Positions 8,840 through 35,156 of a DNA stretch of 64,000 nt are shown here, in pieces. The DNA comes from Sphingomonadales bacterium (GTDB lineage: Bacteria > Pseudomonadota > Alphaproteobacteria > Sphingomonadales > Sphingomonadaceae), in the NCBI GenBank assembly GCA_038228865.1, contig JBBROX010000001.1:368657-432656 (forward strand), read 5' to 3'. Under the pieces are notes generated by a model that ran no database searches, had not been told where the DNA came from, and worked only from the letters and a program-made list of their open reading frames with translations. Numbering within the stretch: position 1 is the stretch's first letter; every line of letters starts with the position of its first letter. Position numbers and translations under genes: made by a program.

Positions 8840-8880
8840 GCGGTCGCCGGCGCCTCCTGAAATCGGAGATCTGTGGAACC

Positions 8881-10500: not shown

Positions 10501-10621
10501 GTGAACCTGCTGTCGATGCGCTGTGCCGCGAGAGCCCTTAGCGTGTGATGTCAGATTAGTGCAACCAACCGCGCGCATACCAAACTGATACAACGTGCAA
10601 GCGGGGGATGGCGACGCTACG

Positions 10622-11533: not shown

Positions 11534-11550
11534 AGTATGATTATGCAAGT
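11534..11550 (+). promoter_or_regulatory. Candidate island operator, copy 1 (AGTATGATTATGCAAGT)
   Basis: 27 bp upstream of the ATG at 11578; overlaps a plausible sigma70 -10 (TATGAT, 11536-41) with TTGCAA at 11512-17. Confidence 0.65.
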
Positions 11551-11577
11551 TTACGGCCATAATAACTTTAGGTGCTC

Positions 11578-12579
11578 ATGCCGCTACCCACCGTCCTGAC
11601 AAGAAATCTCGAACTTCCCGCAATCGCGGCACCGATGTTTTTGATTTCAGGACCGGAAATGGTCGTTGCCGCCTGTAGATCGGGCGTGATCGGCTCGTTT
11701 CCGACGCCGAATGCGCGGACGCCGGAGATTCTCGATCAGTGGATGGAGCAGATTTCCGGTTCCTTGGCTGTCGATGGCAACGCCGCCTCTTGGGCTGCCA
11801 ATCTGGTGGTGCATCCTTCGAACAGCCGCCTTCCTTCCGATCTCGAATGCGTTTTGAAACATAAGCCGCCGCTGATCATCACCGCGCTCGGCAGCCCGGC
11901 GCGCGTGATCGATGCGATCCACAGTTATGGCGGGTTGGTGTTCGCAGACGTCAATTCCGTCAGCTTCGCCCGAAAGGCGGCGGCAGCAGGTGTGGATGGG
12001 CTTGTTCTTGTTGCCGCAGGGGCGGGGGGGCATACGGGGCACACGGTCGGCTTTGCCTTTGTCGAGGAGGTGCGCGCTTTCTGGGACGGCCCGATTGTGC
12101 TGGGCGGTGCAATCTCGACCGGTCAGGCAATCCGAGCCGCCGAGGTGCTGGGAGCCGACCTCGCCTATCTGGGCACGTCGCTCATAGCATGTTCGGAAAG
12201 CATGGCCGATCCGGCCTACAAGCAAATGGTGGTGGATGCCGACGCTGAATCGATCGTTCCGTCGAAGGGCATTACCGGCGTCACCGCCAATTGGCTCAGG
12301 CCCAGCCTGATCGCGGCAGGATACGATCCCGCCAATATGCCCGAGGACAAGAAGCCCAATTTCGAAAACGCCCAGGACGATGCCAAGGCGTGGAAGAACG
12401 TCTGGTCGGCGGGTCAGGGCGTCGGCGCGGTAAGAAGCTGTGCACCGCTGGCCGATGTCATCGCTCGTCTGAAAGAAGAATATGATGCTGCAGCCGGCTT
12501 GCCGGCATTCGGCGCGAAGGAGAGAAGCAATGACCGTCGAATTGGTCGAGACCATAAAGTCCACGATCCAGTCCACTGA
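11578..12579 (+). CDS. Nitronate monooxygenase / 2-nitropropane dioxygenase family flavoenzyme
   Basis: AAPMFLIS, GAGGHTG, LGGAISTG, AYLGTSLIA, WSAGQGVG motifs; first gene of the island operon. Confidence 0.88.
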   Translation: MPLPTVLTRNLELPAIAAPMFLISGPEMVVAACRSGVIGSFPTPNARTPEILDQWMEQISGSLAVDGNAASWAANLVVHPSNSRLPSDLECVLKHKPPLIITALGSPARVIDAIHSYGGLVFADVNSVSFARKAAAAGVDGLVLVAAGAGGHTGHTVGFAFVEEVRAFWDGPIVLGGAISTGQAIRAAEVLGADLAYLGTSLIACSESMADPAYKQMVVDADAESIVPSKGITGVTANWLRPSLIAAGYDPANMPEDKKPNFENAQDDAKAWKNVWSAGQGVGAVRSCAPLADVIARLKEEYDAAAGLPAFGAKERSNDRRIGRDHKVHDPVH

Positions 12580-14026
12580 GAACCCTTATCTGAAGGGGGC
12601 TTGGCGCCCGACGCACAATGAGTGGAACGCCGCGTTCGCGAACGGCGATGTCGAGGTTATCGGCACCATCCCCGATGACATCGACGGGGTCTATGTGCGC
12701 ACCGGCGAGAACCAGATCAACGAGCCGATCGGCCGCTATCACCCGTTCGACGGCGACGGGCTGATCCATTCAATTTCATTCAAGAACGGCCGCGCGAGCT
12801 ATCGCAGCCGGTTCGTCCGTACCAAGGGATTCCAGGCCGAACAGGAAGCCGGACGTTCGCTATGGGCCGGGCTGATGGAGCCGCCGCACAAATCGATCCG
12901 TCCCGGCTGGGGCGCGCAGGAATGGCTGAAGGATTCGTCCTCCACCGACGTCGTCGTGCACGCTGGCAAGATCCTTTCGACATTCTACCAGTGCGGTGAG
13001 GGCTACCGGCTCGATCCGTTCACGATGGAACAGTACGGCACAGAGGGCTGGGTGCCGCTCGATGGCATTTCGGCGCATTGCAAGACAGACGAGGCGACCG
13101 GGGAGTTGCTGTTCTTCAACTACTCGAAGCATGCACCGTACATGCATTATGGCGTGGTCGGGTCGGACAACCGGCTGAAGCATTATGTCCCGATTCCGTT
13201 GCCGGGGCCGCGCCTGCCGCATGACATGGCGTTCACCCCGAACTATTCGATCCTGAACGACATGCCACTCTATTGGGCGCCGGAGCTTTTGGAAAAAGGG
13301 CTGCACGCAGTCCAGTTCTATCCCGACCAGAAGACGCGCTTTGCGGTCATTCCCCGTTTCGGCCAGCCGGAGGATATTCGCTGGTTCGAGGCCGAACCGA
13401 CCTACACGCTCCACTGGCTGAATGCCTGGGAGGAAGGCGACGAGATCGTGCTCGACGGCTATTTCCAGGAAGAGCCGATGCCCAAATCCTATCCGAACGC
13501 GCCCAAGGGGCTCGAGCGGATGATGGCCTATCTCGACCAGCAACTGCTCAAGCCCAAGCTGCACCGCTGGCGGTTCAATCTGAAAACGGGTGGGACGGTC
13601 GAGGAGCGGCTCGACGATCGAATCCTGGAATTCGGGACGATCAACCAGAAATTTGCGGGTCAAAAATACCGATATGCTTACAGCGCAATTCCGGAGCCGG
13701 GCTGGTTCCTGTTTCGCGGCCTGGTCAAGCACGACCTCGAGACCGGCACGAGCCAGTCGATCGAATTCGGCGAAGGCCGGTTCGGCAGCGAAGCGCCGTT
13801 CGCGCCGCGCATCGGTGCGGTCGACGAGGACGACGGCTACATCGTTTCGTTCGTCGCCGACGTGAACACCGACAAATCCGAATGCGTGCTGATCGACGCC
13901 AAGAACTTCGGAGCGGGGCCGGTATGCCGGATCGTTTTGCCCGAACGGATTTGCGCGGGAACCCATTCCACCTGGGCAAGCGGCAATGACATCGGGATGC
14001 CCGAAAATATCGTGCTGGCGGCCTAA
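12530..14026 (+). CDS. Carotenoid oxygenase (RPE65/CCO/LSD) family dioxygenase, paralog 1
   Basis: AAGGAG RBS before ATG 12530; HPFDGDG; four iron-ligand His motifs: SAHCKTD, LPHDMAFT, TLHWLNAW, GTHSTW; FGSEAPF, EDDGY. Confidence 0.93.
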   Translation: MTVELVETIKSTIQSTENPYLKGAWRPTHNEWNAAFANGDVEVIGTIPDDIDGVYVRTGENQINEPIGRYHPFDGDGLIHSISFKNGRASYRSRFVRTKGFQAEQEAGRSLWAGLMEPPHKSIRPGWGAQEWLKDSSSTDVVVHAGKILSTFYQCGEGYRLDPFTMEQYGTEGWVPLDGISAHCKTDEATGELLFFNYSKHAPYMHYGVVGSDNRLKHYVPIPLPGPRLPHDMAFTPNYSILNDMPLYWAPELLEKGLHAVQFYPDQKTRFAVIPRFGQPEDIRWFEAEPTYTLHWLNAWEEGDEIVLDGYFQEEPMPKSYPNAPKGLERMMAYLDQQLLKPKLHRWRFNLKTGGTVEERLDDRILEFGTINQKFAGQKYRYAYSAIPEPGWFLFRGLVKHDLETGTSQSIEFGEGRFGSEAPFAPRIGAVDEDDGYIVSFVADVNTDKSECVLIDAKNFGAGPVCRIVLPERICAGTHSTWASGNDIGMPENIVLAA

Positions 14027-14027
14027 G

Positions 14028-15722
14028 GTGATTGCAGCGGGGGAGGAGAGGCGTGCGCAATGTCGGGCAAGCGGGTGGTGGGGTGACACGACGCTGGGCG
14101 ACATGTTCGTGGCGAATGCGAGAGCGTTTCCAGATCGCCCGGCGCTGATTGATGCGCCCAACCGGGGCGACATCGCGTTCGGTGATCCGCGGCGGTTCTC
14201 CTATGCCGAAATGCTTGCCGAGGTGGAGCGACTAGCGGGTGCGTTGCTGGCGGGCGGGGTCGCCAAGGACGACGTCGTCATGGTGCAGCTGCCCAACATC
14301 AGCGAACTGGTGAACCTCTATATGGCGGCGGCGCTGATCGGCGCTGTCATCAGTCCGGTCGCGGTGCAGTATCGGTCGCACGAGCTGTCGGGCATGATCG
14401 GTCTCGTCAAACCCAGGGCCTTTGTCTGCGCAACCCGGATGAAGGGCTGCGACCATGTTGGCACAGTGCGGCCGTTGCTCGGCAATGCCGTCCGGCTGAT
14501 GACCGTCGGGCCGGATGCGCCGGTCGACGCAGTCGATCTGTCCACAGCGGCCGCGCAAGATGACATGTTTGCGGCGCATCAGGCCGCGCATCCGGTCGAT
14601 GCCGACGACCTCTTTACGATCTGCTGGACCTCGGGGACGACCGGCGTGCCCAAGGGCGTGCCGCGCAGCCACAACCACTGGGTCGCCATTTCGCCTGGTA
14701 CCTATGAATCGGCACGGCTGCGCGACGGCGATATCATGCTGAACCCGTTCCCGCTGATCAACATGGCCAGTATCGGTGGCGTGACGATGAGCTGGCTCAA
14801 GCGGGCGGGCACGATGGTGCTGCACCACCCGTTCGACCCCAAGGTCTTTCTGGCGCAGATTGCAACTGAGCGTCCGCACTTTACCATCGCGCCGCCTGCC
14901 GTGCTCAACATGCTGCTGCAGGATGAAGCGCTGCTCGCCGAGATCGATCTGTCGAGCCTGCGGACGATCGGTTCGGGTTCGGCACCGCTGGCACCGGCAA
15001 TGGTCAAGGGGTTTCAGGACCGGTTCGGCATCATGGTCATCAACCTGTTCGGATCGAACGAGGGCATGGCGCTGGTCACCGGGCCCGATGATGTTCCCGA
15101 TCCGGAGGAACGCGCCCGCTATTTCCCGCGCGCGCCGCTGTTCTCGCCGCCTTACGGATCGGGCCGGGCCACAAACATCGAAACCCGACTGGTCCCGCCG
15201 AAAGGGGGCAGCGCAATTACCGAAAACGGTGTTTCGGGCGAACTGCAGATCAAGGGGCCGACCCTGTTCGAAGGATATTACGGCGCGCCGGAACAGACGG
15301 CCGCTGCCTTCACCGAGGACGGTTTTTTTAAGACAGGCGATTTGTTCGAAATTGCAGGAAACGGACGATTTTACGAGTTCGTCGGACGCTGCAAGGATCT
15401 CATCATCCGTGGCGGCGTCAACATCGCGCCGGAAGAACTCGACCAGCTGCTGGGCGGCCATCCCAAGCTTCAAGAGGCCTGCGCGTTTTCGCTGCCCGAT
15501 CCCGTCATGGGTGAGCGGGTCGGGGTGGCGGCGGTGCCGCGCGCCGGCGAAACCATCGCGCTCGAAGACGTGACCTCCTGGCTGAAGGCGCGGGATCTGG
15601 CGGTGTTCAAGCTGCCCGAGCGGCTTTTCGTTTTCGACGAATTGCCGCGAAACGTGACGAATAAGGTGATGCGGGGCGACGTGCGCGACCGCGCGCTGGC
15701 CATGCTGAAAATGGACGATTGA
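14028..15722 (+). CDS. Class I adenylate-forming enzyme (acyl/aryl-CoA ligase)
   Basis: WTSGTTGVPKGV, FGSNEG, FFKTGD, GRCKDLIIRGGVNI motifs. GTG start at 14028 inferred. Confidence 0.9.
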   Translation: MIAAGEERRAQCRASGWWGDTTLGDMFVANARAFPDRPALIDAPNRGDIAFGDPRRFSYAEMLAEVERLAGALLAGGVAKDDVVMVQLPNISELVNLYMAAALIGAVISPVAVQYRSHELSGMIGLVKPRAFVCATRMKGCDHVGTVRPLLGNAVRLMTVGPDAPVDAVDLSTAAAQDDMFAAHQAAHPVDADDLFTICWTSGTTGVPKGVPRSHNHWVAISPGTYESARLRDGDIMLNPFPLINMASIGGVTMSWLKRAGTMVLHHPFDPKVFLAQIATERPHFTIAPPAVLNMLLQDEALLAEIDLSSLRTIGSGSAPLAPAMVKGFQDRFGIMVINLFGSNEGMALVTGPDDVPDPEERARYFPRAPLFSPPYGSGRATNIETRLVPPKGGSAITENGVSGELQIKGPTLFEGYYGAPEQTAAAFTEDGFFKTGDLFEIAGNGRFYEFVGRCKDLIIRGGVNIAPEELDQLLGGHPKLQEACAFSLPDPVMGERVGVAAVPRAGETIALEDVTSWLKARDLAVFKLPERLFVFDELPRNVTNKVMRGDVRDRALAMLKMDD

Positions 15723-15726
15723 ACCC

Positions 15727-16887
15727 TTGAAAAACACCTATCTACACGATGCCGTCCGCACGCCGCGCGGCAAGGCTAAGCCCGATGGCGGCCTGGCGGG
15801 TTTCTCGCCGCAAGAACTGGTCCGGCAACAGGTCGATGCGCTGCGGCTGCGTGTCGGGGAGAGCGCCTCCAGCCCCGACATTCTGCTGCTGGGCTGCGTC
15901 GGGCAAGTGGGAACGCAGGGCGGCCATATCGCGCTTGTCTCCAAGTTGCATGCCGGCCTGCCCGATGCGACAGCAGCCCACTCGATTAACAACTATTGTG
16001 CCTCGGGCCTGTCGGCGATCGGTCAAGCGGCGGCGCTGGTCGAAATCGGACAGGCCGGGTCCGCTTTGGCGGGCGGCGTCGAGATGATGAGCCAGGTTCC
16101 CTTCATGGGCGACCGCGCGAGCTTTTATGAGGACGCGAGCTTCCCGCACCGTGCACGCTATATCCCGGTCGTGCTGGCGGCCGACCGCTTGGCCAATGCC
16201 GAAGGGATCGGTCGCGCCGAACTGGACATCGTTGCACTCGCGTCGCAGCGAAAGGCCGGTGCGGCTGAAGGCGACCGAGTCCTGCAACGCTCGCGGATCG
16301 CCACCGCAACGCTTTCCGGCGAAGAATGCATCCGCCCGGCGACCACTGCGGAGGGGCTGGCGGCGATGTCGCCATCCTTCGGCGGCTTGCAGGCTCAATA
16401 TGCCGATGCTCTGAACGGCGCGACATTCGAGCCGTTGCACTCGGTGTCGCACGCGCCACCGGTTTGCGACGGTGCCGGTCTGGCGCTGGTCGGTGGCAAG
16501 GATCTGACACCGAAGCCACGCGCCCGCATCCTTGCCTTTGCCGAGAGCGGCGGCGATCCGGAAGCCTCGCTGACGGCGGGCATCGCTGCGATGGAAAAGG
16601 TACTGGCGCGTGCTGGCCTGTCACTGGCCGATATGGACCGGATTGAGTTCATGGAAGCGTTCGCGGTGACCATCGCCAAGTTTCTGCGCGAATATCCGGT
16701 CGATCCGGAGCGGGTAAACGTGGGCGGTGGGCACATCGCCAAGGGACATCCGATGGGAGCGAGCGGCGCGATTCTGACATCGACTCTGCTCGACTGCCTC
16801 GATGCCTGTGATGGCAGCCTAGGCCTTGTCGTGTTGAGCGGCGCGTCGGGCGTCGGCGCTGCAATGATTGTCGAACGGCTGAACTGA
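15727..16887 (+). CDS. Thiolase-family protein lacking the C-terminal catalytic Cys
   Basis: NNYCASGL (first Cys), MEAFA and GHPMGASG present; the usual LCxGGG motif reads LSGASG. Confidence 0.85.
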   Translation: MKNTYLHDAVRTPRGKAKPDGGLAGFSPQELVRQQVDALRLRVGESASSPDILLLGCVGQVGTQGGHIALVSKLHAGLPDATAAHSINNYCASGLSAIGQAAALVEIGQAGSALAGGVEMMSQVPFMGDRASFYEDASFPHRARYIPVVLAADRLANAEGIGRAELDIVALASQRKAGAAEGDRVLQRSRIATATLSGEECIRPATTAEGLAAMSPSFGGLQAQYADALNGATFEPLHSVSHAPPVCDGAGLALVGGKDLTPKPRARILAFAESGGDPEASLTAGIAAMEKVLARAGLSLADMDRIEFMEAFAVTIAKFLREYPVDPERVNVGGGHIAKGHPMGASGAILTSTLLDCLDACDGSLGLVVLSGASGVGAAMIVERLN

Positions 16888-18606
16888 ATGACGACCGCGC
16901 TGAACGACCTGATCGCCAAACACGCGGGAACGCTGGCGGCGGCGATCGATGCAGTGGAGACCCGCAAGAACTGGAGCCCGTTCAGGGATTCGCCCAGCGG
17001 GAAATTCCATGCGCCCGGCGCATCGGAGGCGGGCAAGGCAGCGTTCGACGCGCAGCTGGGCCGACCTTTCGATCTCGACCAGCCCGGCATTGTCGCCCGC
17101 ACCGGTGCCGAGGTGTCGCCCTTTACCCGCCAACCGCTTGGAATCGATTATCCGGTCAGCGATCCCGCCATGCTCATCGCCGCAGCCAGCGCGGCGATGG
17201 CCGGTTGGCGCAAGGTCGCGCCCGAGGCGCGCATCGCCCTATGCCTCGAAATGGCCACGCAACTCTACGCGCGCAATTTCGAGATGGCGCACAGCGTGAT
17301 GCACGTCGCCGGTCAAAGCTATACGCAAGCCTTCAGCGGCAGCGGTCCCAACGCGCTCGATCGCGGGATCGAAGCGCTGGCCTATGCGGCGAAAGCCATG
17401 CGCGATGTCGTGCCCAGCGCGCGGTGGAACCGCACGTTCGGCAAAGAGGACGTGTCGCTCGACAAGCATTATACCCTGGTCCCGCGCGGGATCGGCCTGG
17501 TCATTTGCTGTGCGTCATTCCCCACTTGGAATGCCTATCCGGCGATGTTTGCAAATCTGGCGACCGGCAATCCGGTGATCGTCAAACCGCATCCAATCGC
17601 CGTCTTGCCGATGGCGATCGTGGTGCAGCAATGCCGCAGGGCTCTTGCCGCATTCGGCTGTGATCCGAACCTCGTAACACTGGCGGTCGACACACTCGAC
17701 GCGCCGGTCGCGCAGCATTTCATCGACCACCCCGCGGTGCAGATCATCGATTTCACCGGAAGCCCGCGTTACGGCGGCCATCTTGAGCGGACGATTACCG
17801 GCAAATTGTTGTTCACCGAAACCGCCGGGCTCAATTCGGTCGTGCTGGACTCCTGTGACGATCTGGCGGCGACCGCCACCGCGATTGCGCGCGCAACGAG
17901 CCTGTTTTCGGCGCAAATGTGCACCAGTCCGCAGAACGTCTATGTGCCGGCAAAGGGAATCGAGACCGGCAGCGGGCATGCCTCTTTCGACGAGGTGGCG
18001 ACGGCACTGGTGGATGCGATCGACGCGATTGCCGACAATCCAGTAATGGCGGCAGGTATCATGGGGGCAGTACAAGCCGAACAGAGTTGCGAGATCGTGC
18101 GCGGGCTCGCCGTTCGCGCTGCGCAAACGCCCGGAGCACGCATCCTGCGCCAACCGACGCCTTATCTGCATCCCGATTTTCCCGATGCGCGAACGATGAC
18201 GCCGCTTGTGGTGGCGCTGCCTGCCGACAATGCGGCGCTCTACGCTGAGGAACACTTCGGCCCGGTCCTGTTTGTCATCGCCGCTGCCGATGGCGATGAT
18301 GCGGTGAGCGAAGCTACCGCTCTGGCGCATACGCACGGTGCGATCTCGTCCTATCTCTATTCCACGGACGACGCGTTCATCGACCGATCGCTCGACGCCT
18401 ATGCGGAATCGGGCATGAACCTATCGATCAACCTACACGGGGCAATGTGGGCCAATTTTGCCGCTGCCTATAGCGATTATCACGTCACTGGCCTGAACCC
18501 GGCGGGTAATGCGTGCCTCGCCGACCTGGCCTTCGTCACGAACCGTTTCCGTATCGTCCAGCACCGTCGTCCTGCGGTGGGGGAAGGGGAGAGCCATGCC
18601 GCATAG
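16888..18606 (+). CDS. PaaN-type aldehyde dehydrogenase family protein
   Basis: CCASFPTWNAYP, LATGNPVIVKPHP, FTGS, ETAGLNSVV, SLFSAQMCTSPQN, EEHFGP, AAYSDYHVTGLNPAGNA, as I recall the PaaN clade. Confidence 0.85.
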   Translation: MTTALNDLIAKHAGTLAAAIDAVETRKNWSPFRDSPSGKFHAPGASEAGKAAFDAQLGRPFDLDQPGIVARTGAEVSPFTRQPLGIDYPVSDPAMLIAAASAAMAGWRKVAPEARIALCLEMATQLYARNFEMAHSVMHVAGQSYTQAFSGSGPNALDRGIEALAYAAKAMRDVVPSARWNRTFGKEDVSLDKHYTLVPRGIGLVICCASFPTWNAYPAMFANLATGNPVIVKPHPIAVLPMAIVVQQCRRALAAFGCDPNLVTLAVDTLDAPVAQHFIDHPAVQIIDFTGSPRYGGHLERTITGKLLFTETAGLNSVVLDSCDDLAATATAIARATSLFSAQMCTSPQNVYVPAKGIETGSGHASFDEVATALVDAIDAIADNPVMAAGIMGAVQAEQSCEIVRGLAVRAAQTPGARILRQPTPYLHPDFPDARTMTPLVVALPADNAALYAEEHFGPVLFVIAAADGDDAVSEATALAHTHGAISSYLYSTDDAFIDRSLDAYAESGMNLSINLHGAMWANFAAAYSDYHVTGLNPAGNACLADLAFVTNRFRIVQHRRPAVGEGESHAA

Positions 18607-19033
18607 TGTCGATGACTTTGTCGGTGCCTGGTCGCTCGTCGACTGGCGGATCGAATACAGCGACGGCGGCGTCACACGACCCTTCGGCACAGCGGCGCAT
18701 GGCTACATCGTCTATGCTGCCAACGGGATCATGGTCGCCAACATCGCCAAGGGCGAGCGCGACACCTTTGGTTTGCCCAATGCCCGCAATGCCGATGCGG
18801 GACAGAAGGGCGCGGCGTTCGACAGCTATTTTGCCTATGCCGGTCCCTGGCGGATAGAGGGCGAAGAGGTCGTTCACGCCGTTACCATGTCGTTGTTTCC
18901 CGACATGACCGGCACCGAGCAGCACCGCCTTGCCGAGTTCGACGGCAAGGGCGGGCTGACGCTTTCGGCGCATGAGCCGCTGAAGGACGGGGCCAGTCGC
19001 CATCACATATTGCAATGGCAACGATCCCGATAA
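18596..19033 (+). CDS. Lipocalin-like domain protein
   Basis: ATG at 18596; FVGAWSLVDW (GxW) motif, PFG..GYIVY..NG.M and YFAYAGPW, typical of Lipocalin_5. Confidence 0.75.
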   Translation: MPHSVDDFVGAWSLVDWRIEYSDGGVTRPFGTAAHGYIVYAANGIMVANIAKGERDTFGLPNARNADAGQKGAAFDSYFAYAGPWRIEGEEVVHAVTMSLFPDMTGTEQHRLAEFDGKGGLTLSAHEPLKDGASRHHILQWQRSR

Positions 19034-19081: not shown

Positions 19082-20455
19082 TTGGTACAGGGTTCGAGTG
19101 AACGCCAGCGGGGCCGGTCTCAAACCAAAATCGCTCTGGTCGGTCTGTTAGGATGGGCCGCTCTGCTTGCGACAGGTGCATCGGCCCAGATCCAGCAGCC
19201 GACGGCAGCAGTTCCAGGCCCTCGAGAGTCGGACCCGGTGGCGATAGGCTGGATGCGCGGCAGTCCGCCGCCGCGCGACAAGGTCATCCGGTTCGAGGAC
19301 GGCTCCTACGGCCGGTTTCCGCAAACCCGTTGGTCGTTCGCGCATTATCGGGAGCTTTTTCCCACCGCCAGAGTCTCGCGCGGAAAGGACCCTGTTTCTG
19401 CCTTGCCCGTAAGGCTGCGCACCGACCTGGATGGCGTCATCTTCACGCCGCTGGGCAAGCAAGATCCTATGACCTGGGCGCAGGCGCTTGAGGCGGTTTA
19501 TGCCGATGGCGTTATCGTTCTGCACCGCGGCCGGATCGTCTATGAGCGGTATATGGGGGTCATGGACGGCGACCGGCCGCACATCGCCTTTTCGGTGTCG
19601 AAGTCGTTTTCCGGAACGCTGGCCGAAATGCTCATTGCCGAAGGAAAGCTCGATCAGAACGCGTTGATTGCCCGCTACATTCCGGAACTATCGGCAAGCG
19701 GTTTTGGCGACGCCACTGTCAGGCAGATGCTCGACATGACGACCGGCCTCGACTATTCGGAAAACTATTCCGACCCGAAGGCCCAGGTCGTAAACTACGC
19801 CTGGGCAGCGGGCGCGGCCCCGAGGCCGGCGGGGTATGCCGGGCCGAGAGACATCTTCGATTTCCTGAAAACCGTTCCCAAATCGGGCAGTCACGGCGAC
19901 CAGTTTACCTATCGCACAATCAACACCGAAGTGTTGGGGATCCTGCTTTCCCGCGTGACTGACAAGACGTTACCAAGTCTTCTGAGTGAACGGATCTGGT
20001 CAAAGCTGGGCGCGGAACACGATGCCGATTTTGTCGTGGATTCGAGCGGGACCGCCATTGCAGGCGGCGGGTTGAACATGACCCTGCGCGATGCCGCACG
20101 GTTCGGGGAAATGCTGCGTCTGGGCGGAAGGTTCAACGCGCAGCAGATCGTGCCTGCAGCAGCCGTCGCGTCGATCCGGCGGGGCGCAAGTCAGGCCGAC
20201 TTTGCCAAGGCCGGATACGCCACGTTGCCGAACTGGTCCTACCACAGCCAATGGTGGGTGAGCCACAACCGGAACGGTGCCTTCTCTGCACGCGGCATCT
20301 ATGGTCAGGCGATCTACGTCGACCCGAGGGCCGAAATGGTGATCGTGCGCTTCGCGTCCAATCCAAAAGCGGCGAACGCGAACTTCGATCCCATTTCGCT
20401 CCCGGCGTATCAGGCTATTGCCGATCGGCTGATGCAGCCGACACGAACCAAATAG
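19082..20455 (+). CDS. Serine hydrolase, beta-lactamase class C/NylB-like, probably exported
   Basis: SVSK (SxxK), FTYRTINT, GGGLNMTLRDAARFG, ARGIYGQ; N-terminal hydrophobic signal-like segment. Confidence 0.88.
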   Translation: MVQGSSERQRGRSQTKIALVGLLGWAALLATGASAQIQQPTAAVPGPRESDPVAIGWMRGSPPPRDKVIRFEDGSYGRFPQTRWSFAHYRELFPTARVSRGKDPVSALPVRLRTDLDGVIFTPLGKQDPMTWAQALEAVYADGVIVLHRGRIVYERYMGVMDGDRPHIAFSVSKSFSGTLAEMLIAEGKLDQNALIARYIPELSASGFGDATVRQMLDMTTGLDYSENYSDPKAQVVNYAWAAGAAPRPAGYAGPRDIFDFLKTVPKSGSHGDQFTYRTINTEVLGILLSRVTDKTLPSLLSERIWSKLGAEHDADFVVDSSGTAIAGGGLNMTLRDAARFGEMLRLGGRFNAQQIVPAAAVASIRRGASQADFAKAGYATLPNWSYHSQWWVSHNRNGAFSARGIYGQAIYVDPRAEMVIVRFASNPKAANANFDPISLPAYQAIADRLMQPTRTK

Positions 20456-20495: not shown

Positions 20496-20882
20496 CTATC
20501 GACCGAACCCGCGCAACGCCTTGCCCTGGGCCGAGTCCAGATATTCGTCGAGGCGCACGATGACGCCGTTCTCGATCCGCACAATGACGCATGCGAACAT
20601 TTTCCACTTGGTCCCGTCGGGCAGCGTCGCCTCCAGGATATGCTGCTGCACGAAACCGTCCTTCAGCGCGGCGCGGTAAAGCACGCGGTAGTAGCGGTCG
20701 GGCAGCGTTTTGATGAACCAATCCAGCACGGCCATGTTCTGGTCGACGGTCTGTTCGATATCGTCGGTGTTGTGCCACAGCTTCGCATCGGGGGCGTAGC
20801 AGGCGCGGACGGCATCCACATCACCGGCCTGAATTGCGCCGACAAAACGCTCTGCGAACTCGAGAATCTGGGTTTCGTCCAA
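20496..20882 (-). CDS. NTF2/SnoaL-like protein
   Basis: 128 aa; AGDVDAVRACYAPDA.LWHN and RLDEYLD, NTF2-fold pattern. Confidence 0.75.
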   Translation of the reverse strand: MDETQILEFAERFVGAIQAGDVDAVRACYAPDAKLWHNTDDIEQTVDQNMAVLDWFIKTLPDRYYRVLYRAALKDGFVQQHILEATLPDGTKWKMFACVIVRIENGVIVRLDEYLDSAQGKALRGFGR

Positions 20883-20917
20883 CGCTAGGCTCCTTGGGTT
20901 GATTCAGTCGTGCTCGG

Positions 20918-21661
20918 CTATTCGCGGTTCAGCGCCCTCGCCATGGATTTTGCCAGACCGCTAGGATCGCGCGCGAGAAAGGCGCGGACCGAAATGGCGT
21001 GGGCATCGGTGTCGTGCTCGTCGATCTGGTGCCGTGCCGCCAGCAGGCCGGCACGAGCGATGTCGCGTGGTGTCGACTTGACCTGGTTTTTCACATGATC
21101 GGCCATCCGCGTATCGACCGACCCGACGATGAGCGCCGCGACGTGAGTGCCCTGTGGTGCGAGTTCTGCCCGCAGACAGGTCGACGCGGCACGCGCGGCG
21201 AATTTCGACGGGCTGTAGCCCCCCATGCCGGGTACCGCCACAATCCCGCCCGCCGACAGGACGTTCACGACGCCTCCGCCGCCGTTGCGTTTCAGGATCG
21301 GCGCAAAGGCCCGGATCATCGACACAACCCCGATGTAGTTCGTCTCGATCTCCTGCCGCATTGCGGTCATGTCGGGCGCGGTCAGCAGGGTGGTCATGCC
21401 GAAGGATCCGGCATTGTTGACGACGAGGTCGACGTCGCCGCAGGCCTCGGCCGCTGCCGCTACCTGCCGCTCGTCGGTCACATCCAGTTGAATGCCGACA
21501 AGCCGGGCGGGATCGCGTGCTGCGGCTTGCTGGGCATCGGCAAGCGATCGCGCGCCGATGTAGACGCGCCGAGCGCCCTGTTCGAGCAGTTCCTCAACGA
21601 ACCCCTCGCCGATCCCGCGGTTTCCGCCGGTCACGATGGCCGTGCAATTCTCGATGTTCAT
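20918..21661 (-). CDS. Short-chain dehydrogenase/reductase
   Basis: TGGNRGIG, VNNAG, YSPSK. Confidence 0.9.
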   Translation of the reverse strand: MNIENCTAIVTGGNRGIGEGFVEELLEQGARRVYIGARSLADAQQAAARDPARLVGIQLDVTDERQVAAAAEACGDVDLVVNNAGSFGMTTLLTAPDMTAMRQEIETNYIGVVSMIRAFAPILKRNGGGGVVNVLSAGGIVAVPGMGGYSPSKFAARAASTCLRAELAPQGTHVAALIVGSVDTRMADHVKNQVKSTPRDIARAGLLAARHQIDEHDTDAHAISVRAFLARDPSGLAKSMARALNRE

Positions 21662-21707
21662 TTGCGTACCTGCCCTAGGCTTTGTGGGAGCATGTTGAAA
21701 GCGCGGG

Positions 21708-22160
21708 CTATTTGACGCCCATTTCCGACAGAAGCTGGGCGCGGTCGTAATATTCGCGCCATTCTTTCACCTTGCCGCCTTCAATGAAGAGGACGCCGAC
21801 GACCGGCACCTTGCCCGGATGGCCCTTGTAGACAAATTCATCGACGCGCTCGACGAAAACGGCGTCGCCGATGCGACCGATGTGGCTGACGTGCAGCGTA
21901 ATCGACTGGATCCCGGCACCTAGGGCCGTGAGCCGTTCGGACACGGCCTTGCGGCCGACCACCGGCTCGCTCATCATCGAGTGGAGGACACCGTCTTCGG
22001 TGAACAACGCACCGACCAATGGCCAGTCGCGCTTGTTCCAGGCGTCGATCATTTTCTCGACCACGGCGATCTTGGCGTCGGGCTGCTTTGGTGCCTCTTT
22101 CGCATAGGCACCGGTCGCGCCCATGAGAGCCAGAAGTGCCACCAATATCCAGTTACGCAT
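21708..22160 (-). CDS. Exported limonene-1,2-epoxide hydrolase-like (NTF2 fold) protein
   Basis: Sec signal MRNWILVALLALMGATGAYA; FVERVD, PVVGV, WREYYD resemble LEH motifs. Confidence 0.72.
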   Translation of the reverse strand: MRNWILVALLALMGATGAYAKEAPKQPDAKIAVVEKMIDAWNKRDWPLVGALFTEDGVLHSMMSEPVVGRKAVSERLTALGAGIQSITLHVSHIGRIGDAVFVERVDEFVYKGHPGKVPVVGVLFIEGGKVKEWREYYDRAQLLSEMGVK

Positions 22161-22209
22161 GTTCTTCAGCCTCTCGGAGAATTTACTCTCTACAAGTCGG
22201 ATAGTGCGA

Positions 22210-22719
22210 TTACCGCGCCGGCCGCGACGTCAGTTCGATGACCTGCGCCGAAGCGGCCTCGCCGCGCTTCTGAGCATCAATGATGCCGCGATCGACATAA
22301 TCGCGCCAGCCGCTGATCAGGTCGCCGCGGAATTCGATGATGCCCGCATAGGGTGCCTTGATCGTGTGGCCGTCGAGCGAGTCATATTCGTCGACACCTT
22401 CGGCGAACAGACGATCCGCTGTTTCGGCATGTTCGAATATCCGCCACCGGACCGCGCCGATATTCGCGCCGAACTTATCGATGAAGGCGCGACATTCGGC
22501 TTTTCCGCGTGCTGGCGGCGCGATGGCAGCGGCGTAATGCCACACGATGTTATCCGTCATGCTGTTGATGATGAAGTCGACGTCCTTGCGCTTCCAGGCG
22601 TCGATGACGGCGCTGAATTGCTTGAATCGCTTGTCCATGGCGGTGACTTTCGAATGAGCAGAGATGGGTAGGGCGGAAGCGGCAATCGCAGTTGCAACGA
22701 ATAGCCGGCGGTCAATCAT
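22210..22719 (-). CDS. Tat-exported LEH-like/NTF2-fold protein
   Basis: Twin-arginine signal MIDRRLFVATAIAA; FAEGVDEY and ISGWRDYVD. Confidence 0.7.
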   Translation of the reverse strand: MIDRRLFVATAIAASALPISAHSKVTAMDKRFKQFSAVIDAWKRKDVDFIINSMTDNIVWHYAAAIAPPARGKAECRAFIDKFGANIGAVRWRIFEHAETADRLFAEGVDEYDSLDGHTIKAPYAGIIEFRGDLISGWRDYVDRGIIDAQKRGEAASAQVIELTSRPAR

Positions 22720-22802: not shown

Positions 22803-25115
22803 TTAGAATTTCGCCGAGACCTCAAGGCCGAAGGTACGCGGCGGCGCGTAGGACGACATCTCGTCGCGGAAGAACACGATGATGTTGGTCCGGTAGAGCT
22901 TGTCTGTCAGGTTCTTGGCAAAAACCGACACGCTCCAATTCTTCTCTGGCAGCTTGAAGGTCAAGCGACCGTCGAGCGTCCCATAGCCTTCTTCCCATGT
23001 CGTGTTCTCGGGCGCCCAGGGCATACGGCCCTGATAGCGATAGGCGAGTCTTGCCGTCAGGGCGTCTTCCCAGTCGCCACTGCCGATCGAGGCTTCCGCG
23101 CCGACGGCGAACTGGAATTGCGGCGTACGCTGCAGCTTGTTGCCCGAGTTGTTCACGCCTGCGAAGACGAAATCGTCATATTTTGCATCGAGATATGTGC
23201 CGCTGACCCATGCGCGAATGCTCCGGGTCGGGGCAAACTGGAGGTCGGACTCGATACCCTTGATCGTGGCACTCGCAGCGTTGCTGATGACGTTGCACAG
23301 GCACGAGGCAAGCGTCTGCTGAACCTGAAGATTTTTGTACTTCATCAGGAACAAGGCCGAGTTCCAGCGGAGCTTGCGATCGAACAATTCAGCCTTGTAG
23401 CCCACTTCGTAATTGGTCACTGTCTCTGGATTGTACGCGATCGTGGCGGCAACCCCGGACGATGCGTTGTTCAGGAAACCGCCGCCTTTAAACCCCTGGG
23501 AATAGGTGGCGTAGGCCAACATGGTATTGCTGGGCGTCCAGCTGATCGTCACCTGCGGCGTCGTGTCGCTCCATGACTTGCCATAGGGCACGTTGAAGTT
23601 TTGCGTCAGCGGCGTCAGCGGGGTTGGGTCTGCGGGATTGTACCGGTCGCCGGTGGCTACGATAATGCCCTGCTGATTACCGGATTTGCGATCGCGCGTG
23701 TAACGGATGCCGGCGTCGATCTTCAGCGTATCGGTCAGCTTGTAACCCAGTTGGGCGAACACGGCGTAGTCTTCGTTCTGGCCGCTATCGATCCATTGCG
23801 ATTCACCGCTGAGCGTCGGCAGAACGAGCGATTCGCCCCAGAAACGGTTACGTTGAGTGACGTTGCTCTTCAGGTAAAATGCCCCGACGATCCAGCTCAG
23901 CTTCTGGTCGTCGTCCTTCGACTGCAACCGGAGTTCCTGGGTGAAGTAATTGCCCGTTTCCCGGAAGTTGACCGGTTCCGCAAACAGCAGGCTAGACCCC
24001 ACGCTGGCCAGTTCCGCTGCTGTGAAATTGAACCCGTTGTTGGGGCCAAGTCCGGTCTGGTCATAGAGCGTGTAGGACTTGTTGTTCCGGTACCCGGTAA
24101 TGCTGGACAGGGTAATCTTGTCCCCCAAGTCCTGAGACAGTTTCAGGATGAGGCTGTAGTTGTCGCGTGTCGCACTCTGCGGAGACGGTGCCGCGTCGCC
24201 GGCGAACTGCGGCCAGACGGCATAGCTTTCGCGCGGGCCCAGCGTTCGGCCCAGACGCGCGCTGATCAGTTTGCGCGTGCCCGACCAGATGGTCGCACCC
24301 GTGGCCAGCGTCGGGCTCTGAACTCCGACGCGGTTCACGCCGTTATCGCTGGTCTGCGAAAAATCAGCGATGAAAAGTCCCTTGAAACCGCTGCCTTCGG
24401 GCTCGTAACCCAGTTGCAAGCGTCCCTGCGTCGAATCCAAATTCTCGAGATCGACGTTGTGAAGAAGATCGCGCGCATAGCCCGAATGTTTGATCGCCTG
24501 AAACGAGATGCGACCCGACAGCCCATCGGCGATCCGGCCGTTGATGTAGCCGGTGAACTGCCGAAGGTCGTAATTACCGATCGTGAGCGTGGCCGAGCCC
24601 GAATTGGTTTGCGTCGGCGGGTTGCTGATCACGTTCACGGCGCCACCGGCGACGTTCTTGCCCAAAAGCACGCCCTGCGGGCCGCGAACGACCTCGATAC
24701 GCGCGACGTCGTAGAAGGCGGTGTTGAGCACGCCCGAACGACCTGCATAGACGTCATCGACAAACGTCGAAACGGACTGGTCAGCGGTCGGCCCGGTCAG
24801 ACGCGTATTCACCACACCGCGAATGTTGATTTCATTGGCTTGCGGCGAATTCGACGTGAACGAGATGCCCGTCATCGTCTGAGCAAGATCGTTGATCGAA
24901 ACCACGCGGTCCTTTTCGAGTGTTGCGCCTGAAACGGCAGAAATTGCCAGCGGCGCATCTTGCACGTTCTCAGCACGCTTTTGTGCCGTGACGATGATGG
25001 TTTCGAGGTTGGAAGTTTCGGCAGTTTCCGGCGGCGTCTGGGCCATTGCCGGAAACGCGATACCGAGGGCTGCGAGCGTCACGACGGACGACGCGCGTAA
25101 AGGCACTTTTCTCAT
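22803..25115 (-). CDS. TonB-dependent receptor
   Basis: Signal peptide; TonB box LETIIVTAQKR; plug motif RIEVVRGPQG.L.GKN..GGAVN; NLTDKLY and C-terminal Phe. Confidence 0.96.
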   Translation of the reverse strand: MRKVPLRASSVVTLAALGIAFPAMAQTPPETAETSNLETIIVTAQKRAENVQDAPLAISAVSGATLEKDRVVSINDLAQTMTGISFTSNSPQANEINIRGVVNTRLTGPTADQSVSTFVDDVYAGRSGVLNTAFYDVARIEVVRGPQGVLLGKNVAGGAVNVISNPPTQTNSGSATLTIGNYDLRQFTGYINGRIADGLSGRISFQAIKHSGYARDLLHNVDLENLDSTQGRLQLGYEPEGSGFKGLFIADFSQTSDNGVNRVGVQSPTLATGATIWSGTRKLISARLGRTLGPRESYAVWPQFAGDAAPSPQSATRDNYSLILKLSQDLGDKITLSSITGYRNNKSYTLYDQTGLGPNNGFNFTAAELASVGSSLLFAEPVNFRETGNYFTQELRLQSKDDDQKLSWIVGAFYLKSNVTQRNRFWGESLVLPTLSGESQWIDSGQNEDYAVFAQLGYKLTDTLKIDAGIRYTRDRKSGNQQGIIVATGDRYNPADPTPLTPLTQNFNVPYGKSWSDTTPQVTISWTPSNTMLAYATYSQGFKGGGFLNNASSGVAATIAYNPETVTNYEVGYKAELFDRKLRWNSALFLMKYKNLQVQQTLASCLCNVISNAASATIKGIESDLQFAPTRSIRAWVSGTYLDAKYDDFVFAGVNNSGNKLQRTPQFQFAVGAEASIGSGDWEDALTARLAYRYQGRMPWAPENTTWEEGYGTLDGRLTFKLPEKNWSVSVFAKNLTDKLYRTNIIVFFRDEMSSYAPPRTFGLEVSAKF

Positions 25116-25217: not shown

Positions 25218-25311
25218 GATTTTTGTGCGCAAAAAAACCGCAATGCTCAACCCGAAATGTGAGTGAGACAGAAAACTGCGAGACGGCTGCCGAGATTGCA
25301 TCCAGCTAGAC

Positions 25312-25328
25312 AATATGATTATGCAACT
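25312..25328 (+). promoter_or_regulatory. Candidate island operator, copy 4 (AATATGATTATGCAACT)
   Basis: 15/17 match; 81 bp upstream of the SDR ATG at 25410. Confidence 0.62.
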
Positions 25329-25409
25329 CAGGCGCATTGTCGTTTTTGCGCTGCGGCGTTCAGCAAATCGGCCGCAATTTCAAACGTTTGCTCAGATGTA
25401 GGCGCGGAT

Positions 25410-26375
25410 ATGGCAATTCCAAAAATGCTGCAGGGCCTTTCAAAGACACTCAATTTCTACGGTCGGTTTGCGCCATCGTTCACGCGGATCGGCTATGTAG
25501 CCCGCTTGCTTCCGCTCCGCCCGGTATCTGCCGATTTCACCGGTCAAAGCTGGCTGGTGACGGGTGCGACCGGCGGTATCGGCAAGGCGACGACGCTTCT
25601 CGCTGCATCCAAGGGCGCACGGGTATTGGCGGTGGGTCGCAACCGCGATGCGCTGGCGGCATTGGTCGCCGAAAGCGCGGGTCTCAAAGGCTCGGTCATC
25701 CCGATCGAATGCGATCTATCCTCGATTGCGGCGATCGACGAGATGGCACGCGGCGGTGAGATTTCGACGCCCATCGATGTGCTGGTCAATAACGTCGGCA
25801 TCCTGAACCGCCTGTATTCCGAGACGTCCGAAGGCTTCGAAACGACCTATGCGACAAGCCTTCTGGGGCATTTCCATTTGACCGAGACGCTGGCCGAGAT
25901 CGGGCGTCTCGCCGACCGATCGGTTCTCATCAATGTGGCGTCGGGCGGCATGTTCAATGTGCCGCTCAAACTGCCGATGCTCAATCAGAAGGAGAAGGGG
26001 TTCAACGGTTTCGCATCCTATGCGTCGCACAAACGCGCTCAGGTGGCCCTGGCCGATTACTGGCGGGCCAAGTTCGGCGCGCTCAACCTGCGTGCCTATG
26101 CCATTCATCCGGGCTGGGCCGATACGGCCGGTGTGCAATCGTCTTTGCCGACATTCCGCAAAATCCTGCGGCCCGTCTTGCGCAACGCCGAGCAGGGGGC
26201 CGACACCATCATCTGGCTGGCCGCCGAACGGCCCGATGCAGTCGATGATCGCGTCTGGTTCGACCGCAAGGAGCGGACCACCCATCCGTTTCCACATACC
26301 AGACAAGCAATGACGACGGTACCCGATCTGGTCGCGAAGCTTGATGCCGACAGCAAGCGGGCGTTGGCTGGTTAA
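25410..26375 (+). CDS. SDR family oxidoreductase (DHRS12-like)
   Basis: ATG at 25410; TGATGGIG, VNNVG, YASHK, HPGWADT.G, GADTIIWLA. Confidence 0.88.
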   Translation: MAIPKMLQGLSKTLNFYGRFAPSFTRIGYVARLLPLRPVSADFTGQSWLVTGATGGIGKATTLLAASKGARVLAVGRNRDALAALVAESAGLKGSVIPIECDLSSIAAIDEMARGGEISTPIDVLVNNVGILNRLYSETSEGFETTYATSLLGHFHLTETLAEIGRLADRSVLINVASGGMFNVPLKLPMLNQKEKGFNGFASYASHKRAQVALADYWRAKFGALNLRAYAIHPGWADTAGVQSSLPTFRKILRPVLRNAEQGADTIIWLAAERPDAVDDRVWFDRKERTTHPFPHTRQAMTTVPDLVAKLDADSKRALAG

Positions 26376-26441
26376 GTAGCCCGGCGATCGCCTTACGCGC
26401 TGCCTGTTGTTGCGACGGAACATTCTTGCCAAGCTATTGTA

Positions 26442-26458
26442 GCTTGTATAATCAAACC
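26442..26458 (-). promoter_or_regulatory. Candidate island operator, copy 5 (minus strand GGTTTGATTATACAAGC)
   Basis: 13/17 match; 43 bp upstream of the thiolase ATG; contains TATAAT on the plus strand. Confidence 0.5.
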
Positions 26459-26501
26459 AACAGGGCGGCGCGTCTCAACAGCGCAGCCTCGGGAGAGCGA
26501 T

Positions 26502-27731
26502 ATGGTCTATGTTCTGGGCGGGTGGCAGAGCGACTACGCAAAGAATTGGGATCGCCACGGTATGGAACTGGCCGATGCGTTCTCGGAGGTGGTCCAGAAC
26601 GGTCTGGAGTCCGTCCATCTCGAGCCATCCGACGTCGAAGTCGGGCATGTTGGCAATTTCGTTGGTGACCTGTTTGCGGGGCAGGGCATGCTTGGCGGCT
26701 TTTTCGGGCTGGTCGATCCGGCTTTCAACGGATTGCCAACATCGAGGCACGAAGCCGCCTGCGCTTCGGGGAGTGTGGCGATTCTGGCGGCAACGGCCGA
26801 CATCGAGTCGGGCCGGTACGATCTGGCCTGTGTTGTCGGACTCGAGCTAATGCGCAACGTTTCGGGAGTCATTGCTGCGCAGCATTTGGGTGCTGCCGCT
26901 TGGGCCGGTCATGAATATCAGGATGCCACCTACGCGTGGCCGCGCGCTTTTTCCGATCTCGCGGAGGAATATGACCGGCGTTATGGGTTGTCCTATGAGC
27001 ATCTGATGGCGATTTCGCGAAACAACTTCGCCAATGGCAAGCTCAATCCCAATGCCCAGACGCGCAGCTACCAGTTTACGCCTGAAGCCTTCACGGCATC
27101 CGACGAGCACAATCCAGTTATTGAGGGGCGGACGCGCAAGATGGATTGCGGCCAGGTCAGCGATGGTTCGGCCGTGGTGTTTCTGGCGTCTGCAGAGCGC
27201 GCCGCAGACTATGCCCGCAAGCGTGGCATTCCGCTTGATTCCATACCGCGCATCACAGGCTGGGGACATCGTTCGGCCCCTATTTCCTACAGCGCGAAAA
27301 TCCGCGCGAGCGAAAACGAACCCTACGTGTTCCCGCAGGTCCACCGGGCAGCGATCGAAGCACGGACGCGCGCCGGACTGGCCGATGTGGCGCAGATCGA
27401 CGCGTTCGAAGTACACGACTGCTTTGCGATGACCGAGTATATGGCGATTGACCACCTCGGCATTACAACGCCCGGCGAGGCGTGGAAAGCGGTGGAAAGC
27501 GGTTCGATCGAAATCGGTGGCGCCAATCCGATCAACGCCTCGGGCGGCCTGATCGGTATGGGCCATCCGGTCGGCGCGACGGGCGTCCGCATGGTTCTCG
27601 ACGGCTACAAGCAGGTTACGGACACGGCCGGCGATTACCAGGTCGAAGGGGCACAGCGGCTGCAGACGCTCAACATCGGCGGGTCGACGACCACAACTGT
27701 GAGCTTCATCGTAGAAAAAATGGCGGCGTGA
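26502..27731 (+). CDS. SCP2-type thiolase (acetyl-CoA acetyltransferase family)
   Basis: RHEAACASGS, EVHDCF, GHPVGATG, TLNIGGS (SCP2-thiolase pattern). Confidence 0.9.
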   Translation: MVYVLGGWQSDYAKNWDRHGMELADAFSEVVQNGLESVHLEPSDVEVGHVGNFVGDLFAGQGMLGGFFGLVDPAFNGLPTSRHEAACASGSVAILAATADIESGRYDLACVVGLELMRNVSGVIAAQHLGAAAWAGHEYQDATYAWPRAFSDLAEEYDRRYGLSYEHLMAISRNNFANGKLNPNAQTRSYQFTPEAFTASDEHNPVIEGRTRKMDCGQVSDGSAVVFLASAERAADYARKRGIPLDSIPRITGWGHRSAPISYSAKIRASENEPYVFPQVHRAAIEARTRAGLADVAQIDAFEVHDCFAMTEYMAIDHLGITTPGEAWKAVESGSIEIGGANPINASGGLIGMGHPVGATGVRMVLDGYKQVTDTAGDYQVEGAQRLQTLNIGGSTTTTVSFIVEKMAA

Positions 27732-27795
27732 GCGACAGCGTTTTCGATTGCGCGGCGCAGTTCCTGCTTGCCGCCGATATCCGGATCGTCCTGCG

Positions 27796-29586: not shown

Positions 29587-29592
29587 ACCTAC

Positions 29593-30387: not shown

Positions 30388-30400
30388 TCGACGGTCGCGC

Positions 30401-32384: not shown

Positions 32385-32401
32385 AGTATGATCATGCAAG
32401 C
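32385..32401 (+). promoter_or_regulatory. Candidate island operator, copy 6 (AGTATGATCATGCAAGC)
   Basis: 15/17 match; spans the stop codon of the HxlR gene and lies directly upstream of the SDR. Confidence 0.6.
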
Positions 32402-33453: not shown

Positions 33454-33470
33454 ACTTGCATAGTCGAACT
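33454..33470 (-). promoter_or_regulatory. Candidate island operator, copy 7 (minus strand AGTTCGACTATGCAAGT)
   Basis: 14/17 match; between the divergent regulator and oxygenase paralog 2. Confidence 0.6.
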
Positions 33471-34998: not shown

Positions 34999-35156
34999 AG
35001 GACGTGCCCCTGTGGGCAATTGCTCTCTGCCATCGGGTCGGTGCTGTTCCGCTCGGGCCCTTCGGCTGCTTGAGCCAGCGAGAAAAACTCTTGGCTTGTC
35101 ACGCCACAATAATGGACGAGAGTGCCATCGTCGGGACCTACCGGAGAGCAGATGGC

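Follow-up and report, generated by a model that had tools for sequence, protein, structure and literature searches.

The stretch of DNA analysed here, 64,000 nucleotides of a Sphingomonadales bacterium (positions 368,657 to 432,656 of contig JBBROX010000001.1, assembly GCA_038228865.1) and hereafter called the window, carries an island of approximately 24 kb that includes two genes of the carotenoid oxygenase (CCO) family, CCO1 (12530..14026, plus strand, 498 amino acids) and CCO2 (33517..34998, plus strand, 493 amino acids), both encoding putative dioxygenases. CCO1 belongs to sublineage A1 and CCO2 to sublineage A2 of a lineage that we call clade A, and the same 17-bp operator-like box stands before both oxygenase operons; family, clade, gene order, conservation and the shared box are direct observations. 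We lean towards reading these data as two separately inherited alkene-cleaving dioxygenases that share one HxlR-controlled regulon in a chimeric island and that would act, as separate enzymes, on a carotenoid-type substrate. The first-pass annotation, made from the sequence alone, had described two related oxygenases bracketing an island, and this placement agrees with ours: CCO1 is the second gene of the first operon and CCO2 the first gene of the last.

Family membership, active site and phylogeny of the two oxygenases

CCO1 and CCO2 are full-length RPE65/carotenoid-oxygenase proteins. The PF03055 (RPE65) profile matched them with E values of 6e-125 and 9e-121 (418 and 405 bits against a cut-off of 27), over the full length in both (profile positions 3-468 of 469), and they are the only PF03055 genes in the 3.26-Mb genome. 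Their starts, ATG at 12530 preceded by GAAGGAGAG for CCO1 and GTG at 33517 preceded by GGAGAG for CCO2, are supported because homologues of 498 and 493 amino acids align at 100% coverage. The two proteins are identical at 318 of 484 residues (66%; BLASTP, E = 0), and the long blocks that had been reported as common to both (YHPFDGDG, KDSSSTDVVVHAGKI, FYQCGE and PIPLPGPRLPHDMAFT) were found in each. The four iron-binding histidines, likewise said earlier to be kept in both, are H183, H231, H295 and H479 in CCO1 and H180, H228, H292 and H476 in CCO2, and are invariant across the clade A alignments. An AlphaFold2 model of CCO1 (pLDDT 89.5, pTM 0.92) matched all solved CCOs with TM scores of 0.78-0.84, which places it in the seven-bladed beta-propeller fold.

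Equivalog models of NCBIfam were used to compare the two proteins with characterised groups. CCO1 and CCO2 scored 211 and 228 bits with the lignostilbene dioxygenase (LSD) model NF053778 (cut-off 800), 168 and 191 bits with the NOV2 model NF053780 (cut-off 650), and 222 and 239 bits with NF052295, the model of the 8'-apo-carotenoid 13,14-cleaving dioxygenase (NACOX1 type; cut-off 675), and were thus below the cut-off in every case. True LSD and NACOX1-type equivalogs, drawn for comparison from genomes of the same GTDB family, are 27-32% identical to CCO2. The residues Phe-59 and Tyr-101, along with Lys-134, have been named as the stilbene-catalytic residues of LSD (PMC8191317). With the LSD residue numbering (LsdA) verified on one LSD equivalog, Phe-59 is kept in CCO1 as F73, Tyr-101 (within FGAYRNP) corresponds to L115, Lys-134 to Y153, and the TANT motif to SSST. 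The same-family LSD equivalogs carry FGAYRNP and TANTN where CCO1 and CCO2 carry LWAGLMEPP and LWGGLMDPP, respectively, together with SSSTD, and the first-pass annotation was therefore correct in noting that the YRN...TANT segment is missing. Since this segment is absent and the Tyr/Lys pair is replaced, we conclude that CCO1 and CCO2 are not phenol-activating enzymes. An LSD identity was ruled out by the scores, by Leu and Tyr at the phenol-binding positions Tyr-101 and Lys-134 as well as by the tree described below, and a NACOX1-type identity was ruled out by the score, by 30-32% identity to true equivalogs and by the same tree.

Three second-shell glutamates (Glu150, Glu370 and Glu426) have been described in ACO (PMC13734108), and two of the three are kept in CCO1 as E367 and E421. 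The column of ACO Glu150, which is that of LSD Glu135 adjacent to Lys-134, holds an invariant glutamine, Gln154, in clade A, a placement on which MAFFT and HMMER agree. The acidic residue E157, three positions past Gln154, might substitute for Glu150. In the sequence search of solved structures, the ACO E150Q mutant chain 5kjd scored slightly above the wild type against the query.

A search of 1.84 billion representatives returned 7727 relatives with a smooth fall-off in score; a narrower group, including CCO1 and CCO2, is marked by the signature KD(S/T)xSTD, an inserted FYQCG(E/D), PRLPHDM and SGTH. In a maximum-likelihood tree of 111 sequences, with SH-aLRT values as support, clade A held 91 rows, CCO1 and CCO2 among them (support 100, starred), with 36 rows in A1 alongside CCO1 (support 97, starred) and 41 in A2 alongside CCO2 (support 100, starred). 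Clade B (10 rows, 39-45% identical) is sister to clade A, plant CCD1 is next outward from the two (support 92, long branch), and the LSD and NACOX1-type equivalogs fall outside. A recent tandem-type duplication is ruled out, as CCO1 and CCO2 belong to separate starred sublineages, each of them with many taxa, and on this topology the two are old paralogues or separately acquired genes. Because only two positions consistently separate A1 from A2 across 77 sequences (F413/L410 and R473/K470), their chemistry is probably the same, with any difference in specificity being subtle. The suggestion of the first-pass annotation that the clade is a substrate orphan held up as far as it was tested: scores lie far below the equivalog cut-offs, the clade stands apart from the LSD and NACOX1-type equivalogs, and literature searches found no paper describing clade A or its gene cluster.

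Clade-A genes are widely scattered. One scan of named genomes gave 80 loci at 54-80% identity in Caulobacterales, Sphingomonadales, Burkholderiales, Cellvibrionales, SAR86, Woeseia, Acidobacteriota and Actinomycetota, and a cluster look-up of ten representatives among the relatives returned Bacteroidota, Porticoccaceae and Myxococcota and no actinobacterial name. A Sphingopyxis protein from a metagenome-assembled genome (MAG) is 79% identical to CCO1. Since 11 of the 60 genera sampled in the host's own GTDB family and only 1 of 300 further genomes spread over the class carry clade A, these genes are accessory and patchy; a genome of the same genus as the host, G019, has no clade-A gene. Single copies prevail (10 of 12 clade-A genomes in the own-family sample), two copies being found there only in the host itself, with A1 plus A2, and in G028, with two A2 genes on different contigs. 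Of ten further clade-A genomes, none has a second clade-A copy and five combine clade A with clade B, usually less than 12 kb apart, and no two clade-A genes lie within 10 kb at any of the 80 loci (0/80).

Clade B, which has the motif WYxxG instead of FYQCGE, regularly stands beside a PaaN-type aldehyde dehydrogenase and a lipocalin_5 gene in clade-A clusters (loci L051, L052, L054, L056, L059 and L076, from Burkholderiales MAGs and Pararhodobacter aggregans), and Pararhodobacter has three oxygenases within 12 kb. The clade-A gene of an otherwise complete type-2 cluster (see below) in Algimonas arctica (L041; G469:C2:268542-269996) has one internal TAA, which may mark a pseudogene or stem from an assembly error.

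The shared box and the make-up of the island

The box pattern, MAGT-N6-ATG(C/A)AAGY, was not derived from this window but on another genome, and its test here is independent for that reason. Searched as its reverse complement, RCTTKCAT-N6-ACT, with one mismatch allowed, the 17-bp box occurred five times in the 64 kb against 1.78 occurrences expected by chance, and 5 of 5 fell in promoter gaps of the island. An exact match (ACTTGCATAATCATACT, 11534..11550, minus strand; position-weight matrix (PWM) score 27.2) lies 22 nt upstream of the NMO-CCO1 operon, two boxes (25161-25177, plus strand, and 25201-25217, minus strand) sit in the gap where the receptor and SDR_b genes diverge, and further exact matches are situated just upstream of SDR_c (GCTTGCATGATCATACT, 32385..32401, minus strand) and in the gap between HxlR and CCO2 (ACTTGCATAGTCGAACT, 33454..33470, plus strand). 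A position-weight scan of the window ranked a weaker site upstream of the SCP2-thiolase operon (26438..26462, plus strand; PWM score 16.4) next after these five strong ones and found nothing comparable elsewhere; a palindromic operator search in three promoter gaps yielded weak, unrelated inverted repeats only. Because all five boxes sit in promoter gaps of the island, those of the two oxygenase operons among them, a single regulon probably spans the island, and we infer that the double-HxlR protein encoded beside CCO2 binds the box.

Mapping of the window proteins onto relatives by tblastn defined two types of cluster. Type 2 clusters (G026, G001, G028 and G007) have one A2 oxygenase together with nearly all other island genes, and the type 1 cluster (G054) consists of HxlR, receptor, NMO, A1 oxygenase, ligase, SCP2 thiolase and thiolase. 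Identity to type 1 is 68-78%, and to type 2 45-62%, for the NMO, ligase 1 and thiolase 1 of the window, whereas the converse holds for its SCP2 thiolase, HxlR and receptor, which are closer to type 2. In light of these opposite patterns, the island is best read as a chimera of the two types in which accessory functions are single and both oxygenases are retained. A compact type 1 module (NMO, CCO1, CoA ligase and thiolase, followed here by the aldehyde dehydrogenase and lipocalin) would have replaced the equivalent type 2 genes, with the TonB receptor, periplasmic NTF2-fold proteins, short-chain dehydrogenases (SDRs), SCP2 thiolase, second ligase, DUF1295, regulator and CCO2 coming from the type 2 source.

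Conserved partners were counted by tblastn within 10 kb of the 80 related oxygenases, many of which lie on short contigs. The SCP2 thiolase was found at 40 loci, DUF1295 at 34, the double HxlR at 28, thiolase at 27, ligase 1 at 21, NMO at 19, the receptor at 14 and the PaaN dehydrogenase at 10, the last with A1 or clade-B oxygenases. Additionally, 19 of 100 genomes in a Mycobacteriales sample carry a clade-A gene at 54-58% identity, and at 8 of the 8 loci fetched an SCP2-type thiolase (51-55% identical to that of the window) lies directly upstream on the same strand. In the window, the SCP2-type thiolase likewise accompanies clade A, as a member of the same putative regulon.

Gene functions in the window were assigned by Pfam and NCBIfam profile scans, and four gene runs make up the island. 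The first, on the plus strand, opens with an NMO/FabK-like FMN enzyme, a putative enoyl reductase (11572..12579; PF03060, 3e-21) that is 78% identical to the neighbour of the CCO1 orthologue in G054, and continues after CCO1 with an AMP-binding acyl-CoA ligase 1 (13986..15722; PF00501, 8e-67; 68% identical to G054), a thiolase 1 of degradative type (15727..16887; Thiolase_N/C, TIGR01930 above cut-off), a PaaN-type aldehyde dehydrogenase (16888..18606; TIGR02288, 594 bits against a cut-off of 579), a lipocalin-like protein of family Lipocalin_5 (18509..19033; PF13924, 3.5e-31), whose true start is probably later than 18509, and an exported beta-lactamase-fold serine hydrolase with an N-terminal signal-like segment, a putative periplasmic esterase (19082..20455; PF00144, 1e-37). 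Thiolase 1 has LSGASGVG where classical thiolases carry the second catalytic Cys. The second run, on the minus strand, comprises the TonB-dependent outer-membrane receptor with plug and barrel domains (22803..25115) and, at 20496..22719, the genes SnoaL_a, SDR_a, SnoaL_b and SnoaL_c, which encode three NTF2-fold proteins, two of them with export signals, and one SDR, and are conserved with CCO2-type genes.

The third run returns to the plus strand with SDR_b (25263..26375; profile scan) and the SCP2-type thiolase (26502..27731; NF004936, 639 bits against a cut-off of 375), which is a true thiolase as judged from its retention of Cys87, HDCF305 and GHP354; acyl-CoA ligase 2, a DUF1295 membrane protein and a DapB_N-like oxidoreductase follow (27748..31462) and are conserved in type-2 clusters. 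In the last run, SDR_c (31471..32379; profile scan) and the fused double-HxlR regulator (32392..33369; PF01638 in two stretches), both on the minus strand, diverge from CCO2 and a MaoC-type (R)-specific enoyl-CoA hydratase (35004..35612, plus strand; PF01575). The hydratase is specific to the window, as tblastn within 10 kb did not find it at any of the 80 related loci. Directly after CCO2 and MaoC come cysD, cysNC and cysQ (35784-39324; sulfate activation to PAPS); in Hirschia maritima (L096, ~11.5-16 kb) cysD (82%) and cysNC (72%) likewise come after a clade-A oxygenase and DUF1295, an adjacency that may be chance or may reflect a tie to sulfated lipids or carotenoid sulfates. To the left of the island, G+C falls to 0.56 at 8000-10000 over polysaccharide genes (a sugar transferase at 8881-9657 and Poly_export at 9955-10731). 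In the same-genus genome G019 the left flank has no conserved counterpart, and the DNA, at 74% in cysDN, is too diverged for an empty-site comparison.

A predicted pathway and its alternatives

Our interpretation of the substrate, the order of steps and the division of labour treats CCO1 and CCO2 as cytoplasmic Fe(II) dioxygenases that would use O2 to split a lipophilic, non-phenolic polyene at a C=C bond, yielding two carbonyl products, both enzymes being controlled by the double-HxlR regulator through the shared 17-bp box. The substrate would be taken up through the TonB receptor, trimmed in the periplasm by the esterase and NTF2-fold proteins, and cleaved by the oxygenases, after which the aldehyde would be oxidised to the acid and converted to its CoA ester, double bonds would be reduced or hydrated, and thiolysis would follow. 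SCPx-type thiolases take 2-methyl-branched 3-ketoacyl-CoAs, and the SCP2-type thiolase would handle the 2-methyl-branched intermediates. Rather than forming an obligate heterodimer, CCO1 and CCO2 would act as separate enzymes, each with its own substrate or bond position. Import and breakdown of a methyl-branched polyene is suggested because these non-phenolic CCOs are nearest to carotenoid-cleaving enzymes, because the island encodes an aldehyde dehydrogenase, two CoA ligases, two candidate C=C reductases (NMO and DUF1295) and a hydratase, and because a receptor of the outer membrane accompanies them together with esterase-like and epoxide-hydrolase-like proteins that are exported. Most plausibly, the substrate would be a carotenoid, xanthophyll or apocarotenoid, possibly esterified or epoxidised.

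Several points weigh against this reading. With two discriminating positions only, both enzymes may do the same thing; the second-shell change from Glu to Gln may mean that the iron site behaves differently from those of studied CCOs; and the chimera is read from identity patterns and not from a dated transfer. We found no measured activity for any clade-A member in the literature. PaaN normally acts on a CoA-bound semialdehyde, and the PaaN-type dehydrogenase may by analogy point to a non-carotenoid substrate. Furthermore, the host has carotenoid genes of its own, crtI and crtB on contig 28 (G000:C28:15165-18039), and the island may serve turnover of the host's own pigments. One in-frame TGA lies in the crtI match; it could mark the boundary of a gene, reflect an error in sequencing or mean that the gene is broken.

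The scarcity of positions that tell A1 from A2, the almost identical active-site motifs of CCO1 and CCO2, the single clade-A copy that suffices in most genomes and the two A2-type copies of G028 would all fit redundant isozymes, the second copy being left over from the merger of cluster variants, cutting the same bond of the same substrate and leaving one of the two dispensable. Yet the merger left each accessory gene single but the two oxygenases intact, each oxygenase gene has a good ribosome-binding site and an operator box of its own, and clusters elsewhere often retain two different oxygenases, so that we regard redundancy as rather unlikely, if well worth keeping in mind. The first-pass annotation had proposed either sequential cleavages or a heterodimer, and the first of these is plausible: because clusters with clade A and clade B recur and both genes survived the merger, two cleavage steps or two substrates are favoured, and the shared operator box is consistent with this. 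The second half of the proposal found no support. A CCO1-CCO2 mixed dimer as the active enzyme, similar to LsdA/LsdB of Sphingomonas paucimobilis TMY1009, could draw on the predicted membership of both genes in one regulon and on the edge-to-edge dimerisation through the first strand seen in some CCO-family enzymes, but LSD dimers form via this N-terminal strand and heterodimers are expected only with nearly identical N-termini (PMC8191317), and the strands here are TVELVET in CCO1 and DVQFLEP in CCO2. The genes also lie in different operons 19.5 kb apart, and the copy numbers given above, with a single clade-A gene as the rule, likewise count against a mixed dimer. An obligate heterodimer is thus unlikely, and a mixed dimer as the active form is in our judgement highly improbable.

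A further alternative retains the catabolic island but changes its substrate, which would be a non-carotenoid lipid, either another isoprenoid or a CoA-bound unsaturated acid, in which the oxygenases cut C=C bonds that block beta-oxidation. The match of the dehydrogenase to the PaaN equivalog is in keeping with this, as are the actinobacterial minimal unit of thiolase and oxygenase alone, the conservation of two C=C reductase candidates (NMO and DUF1295), and the fact that a direct tie to carotenoids was not found. We know of no CCO enzyme that cleaves isolated double bonds, however, and the receptor, exported esterase and epoxide-hydrolase-like NTF2 proteins would suit esterified or epoxidised xanthophylls. 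Cleavage of conjugated polyenes is common to all the nearest relatives of known activity, namely plant CCD1 and the bacterial carotenoid oxygenases (PMC5133782). Taken together, these points make a non-carotenoid lipid doubtful, and we retain the carotenoid-type polyene as the preferred substrate.

Tentatively, and short of calling it probable, we propose that the clade-A oxygenase and SCP2 thiolase open an undescribed and widespread polyene-mineralising pathway, extending from aquatic Proteobacteria to Mycobacteriales and including Rv0913c/Rv0914c, with a Gln-modified iron site and with A1 and A2 dividing the work here on different bonds or pigments. Algae and plants make carotenoids in very large amounts, and literature searches found no described bacterial pathway using carotenoids as food. 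Bacterial carotenoid use would become testable through a conserved regulon that covers uptake, C=C cleavage, aldehyde oxidation, activation to the CoA ester and thiolysis of branched chains, with Brevundimonas, Caulobacter, Algimonas arctica and Hirschia maritima as cultured relatives for such work, and the oxygenase-thiolase pair in Mycobacteriales would offer a first functional lead for M. tuberculosis Rv0913c and Rv0914c. The new points are the pairing of A1 and A2 in one predicted regulon, the chimeric island and the second-shell change from Glu to Gln. Coexistence of two clade-A sublineages in this regulon provides a natural pair for comparing specificity, and the natural glutamine beside the iron site is a ready-made probe of second-shell function in the CCO family.

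Comparison with known systems

The closest solved relative by sequence is plant CCD1, the carotenoid 9,10(9',10')-dioxygenase of Osmanthus fragrans (PDB 7vud, 9m3e and 9m6z), whose chain 9m6z matched at 1e-67 compared with ~1e-44 to 1e-49 for VP14, ACO and the LSDs. It also came first by E-value in the fold search (TM 0.81; 30-31% identity to CCO1) and, among characterised lineages, stands closest to clades A and B in the tree. CCO1 and CCO2 resemble CCD1 in having a four-His iron site in a soluble seven-bladed propeller and in lacking the phenol-binding Tyr/Lys pair, but CCD1 has TANT and a glutamate equivalent to Glu150 where clade A has SSST and Gln. Whereas CCD1 makes aroma and signal compounds in plants, the CCO1 and CCO2 genes sit in a predicted CoA-dependent bacterial catabolic regulon. 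With the LSDs (LsdA, LSD4, NOV1 and NOV2) they share superfamily and fold (TM 0.82-0.84), occurrence in the same bacterial family, a putative catabolic role and the retained Phe-59; they differ from them in sequence (25-29% identity), in forming a separate clade, and in the replacement of Tyr-101 by Leu and of Lys-134 by Tyr.

Among tested bacterial carotenoid oxygenases, NACOX1 (Novosphingobium), MtCCO/Rv0654, SaCCO (Sphingopyxis alaskensis) and PpCCO cleave apocarotenals or xanthophylls at the 9'-10', 11'-12' or 13-14 bonds (PMC5133782). CCO1 and CCO2 are, like these enzymes, bacterial and soluble, and the same-family equivalogs of NACOX1 type, at the 30-32% identity given above, fall outside clade A. 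None of the four has been described within a catabolic cluster. By analogy with the Sphingopyxis MAG protein and its 79% identity to CCO1, SaCCO may itself belong to clade A. Lastly, M. tuberculosis Rv0914c and Rv0913c have been annotated (PMC8669151, PMC5133782), and the order of thiolase followed by clade-A oxygenase in Mycobacteriales is that implied by the numbering Rv0914c-Rv0913c, which lends indirect support, through gene order, to the resemblance to Rv0913c proposed in the first-pass annotation. The thiolase is adjacent to the clade-A gene in Mycobacteriales, whereas in the window 12.5 kb separate the SCP2 thiolase from CCO1 and 5.8 kb from CCO2.

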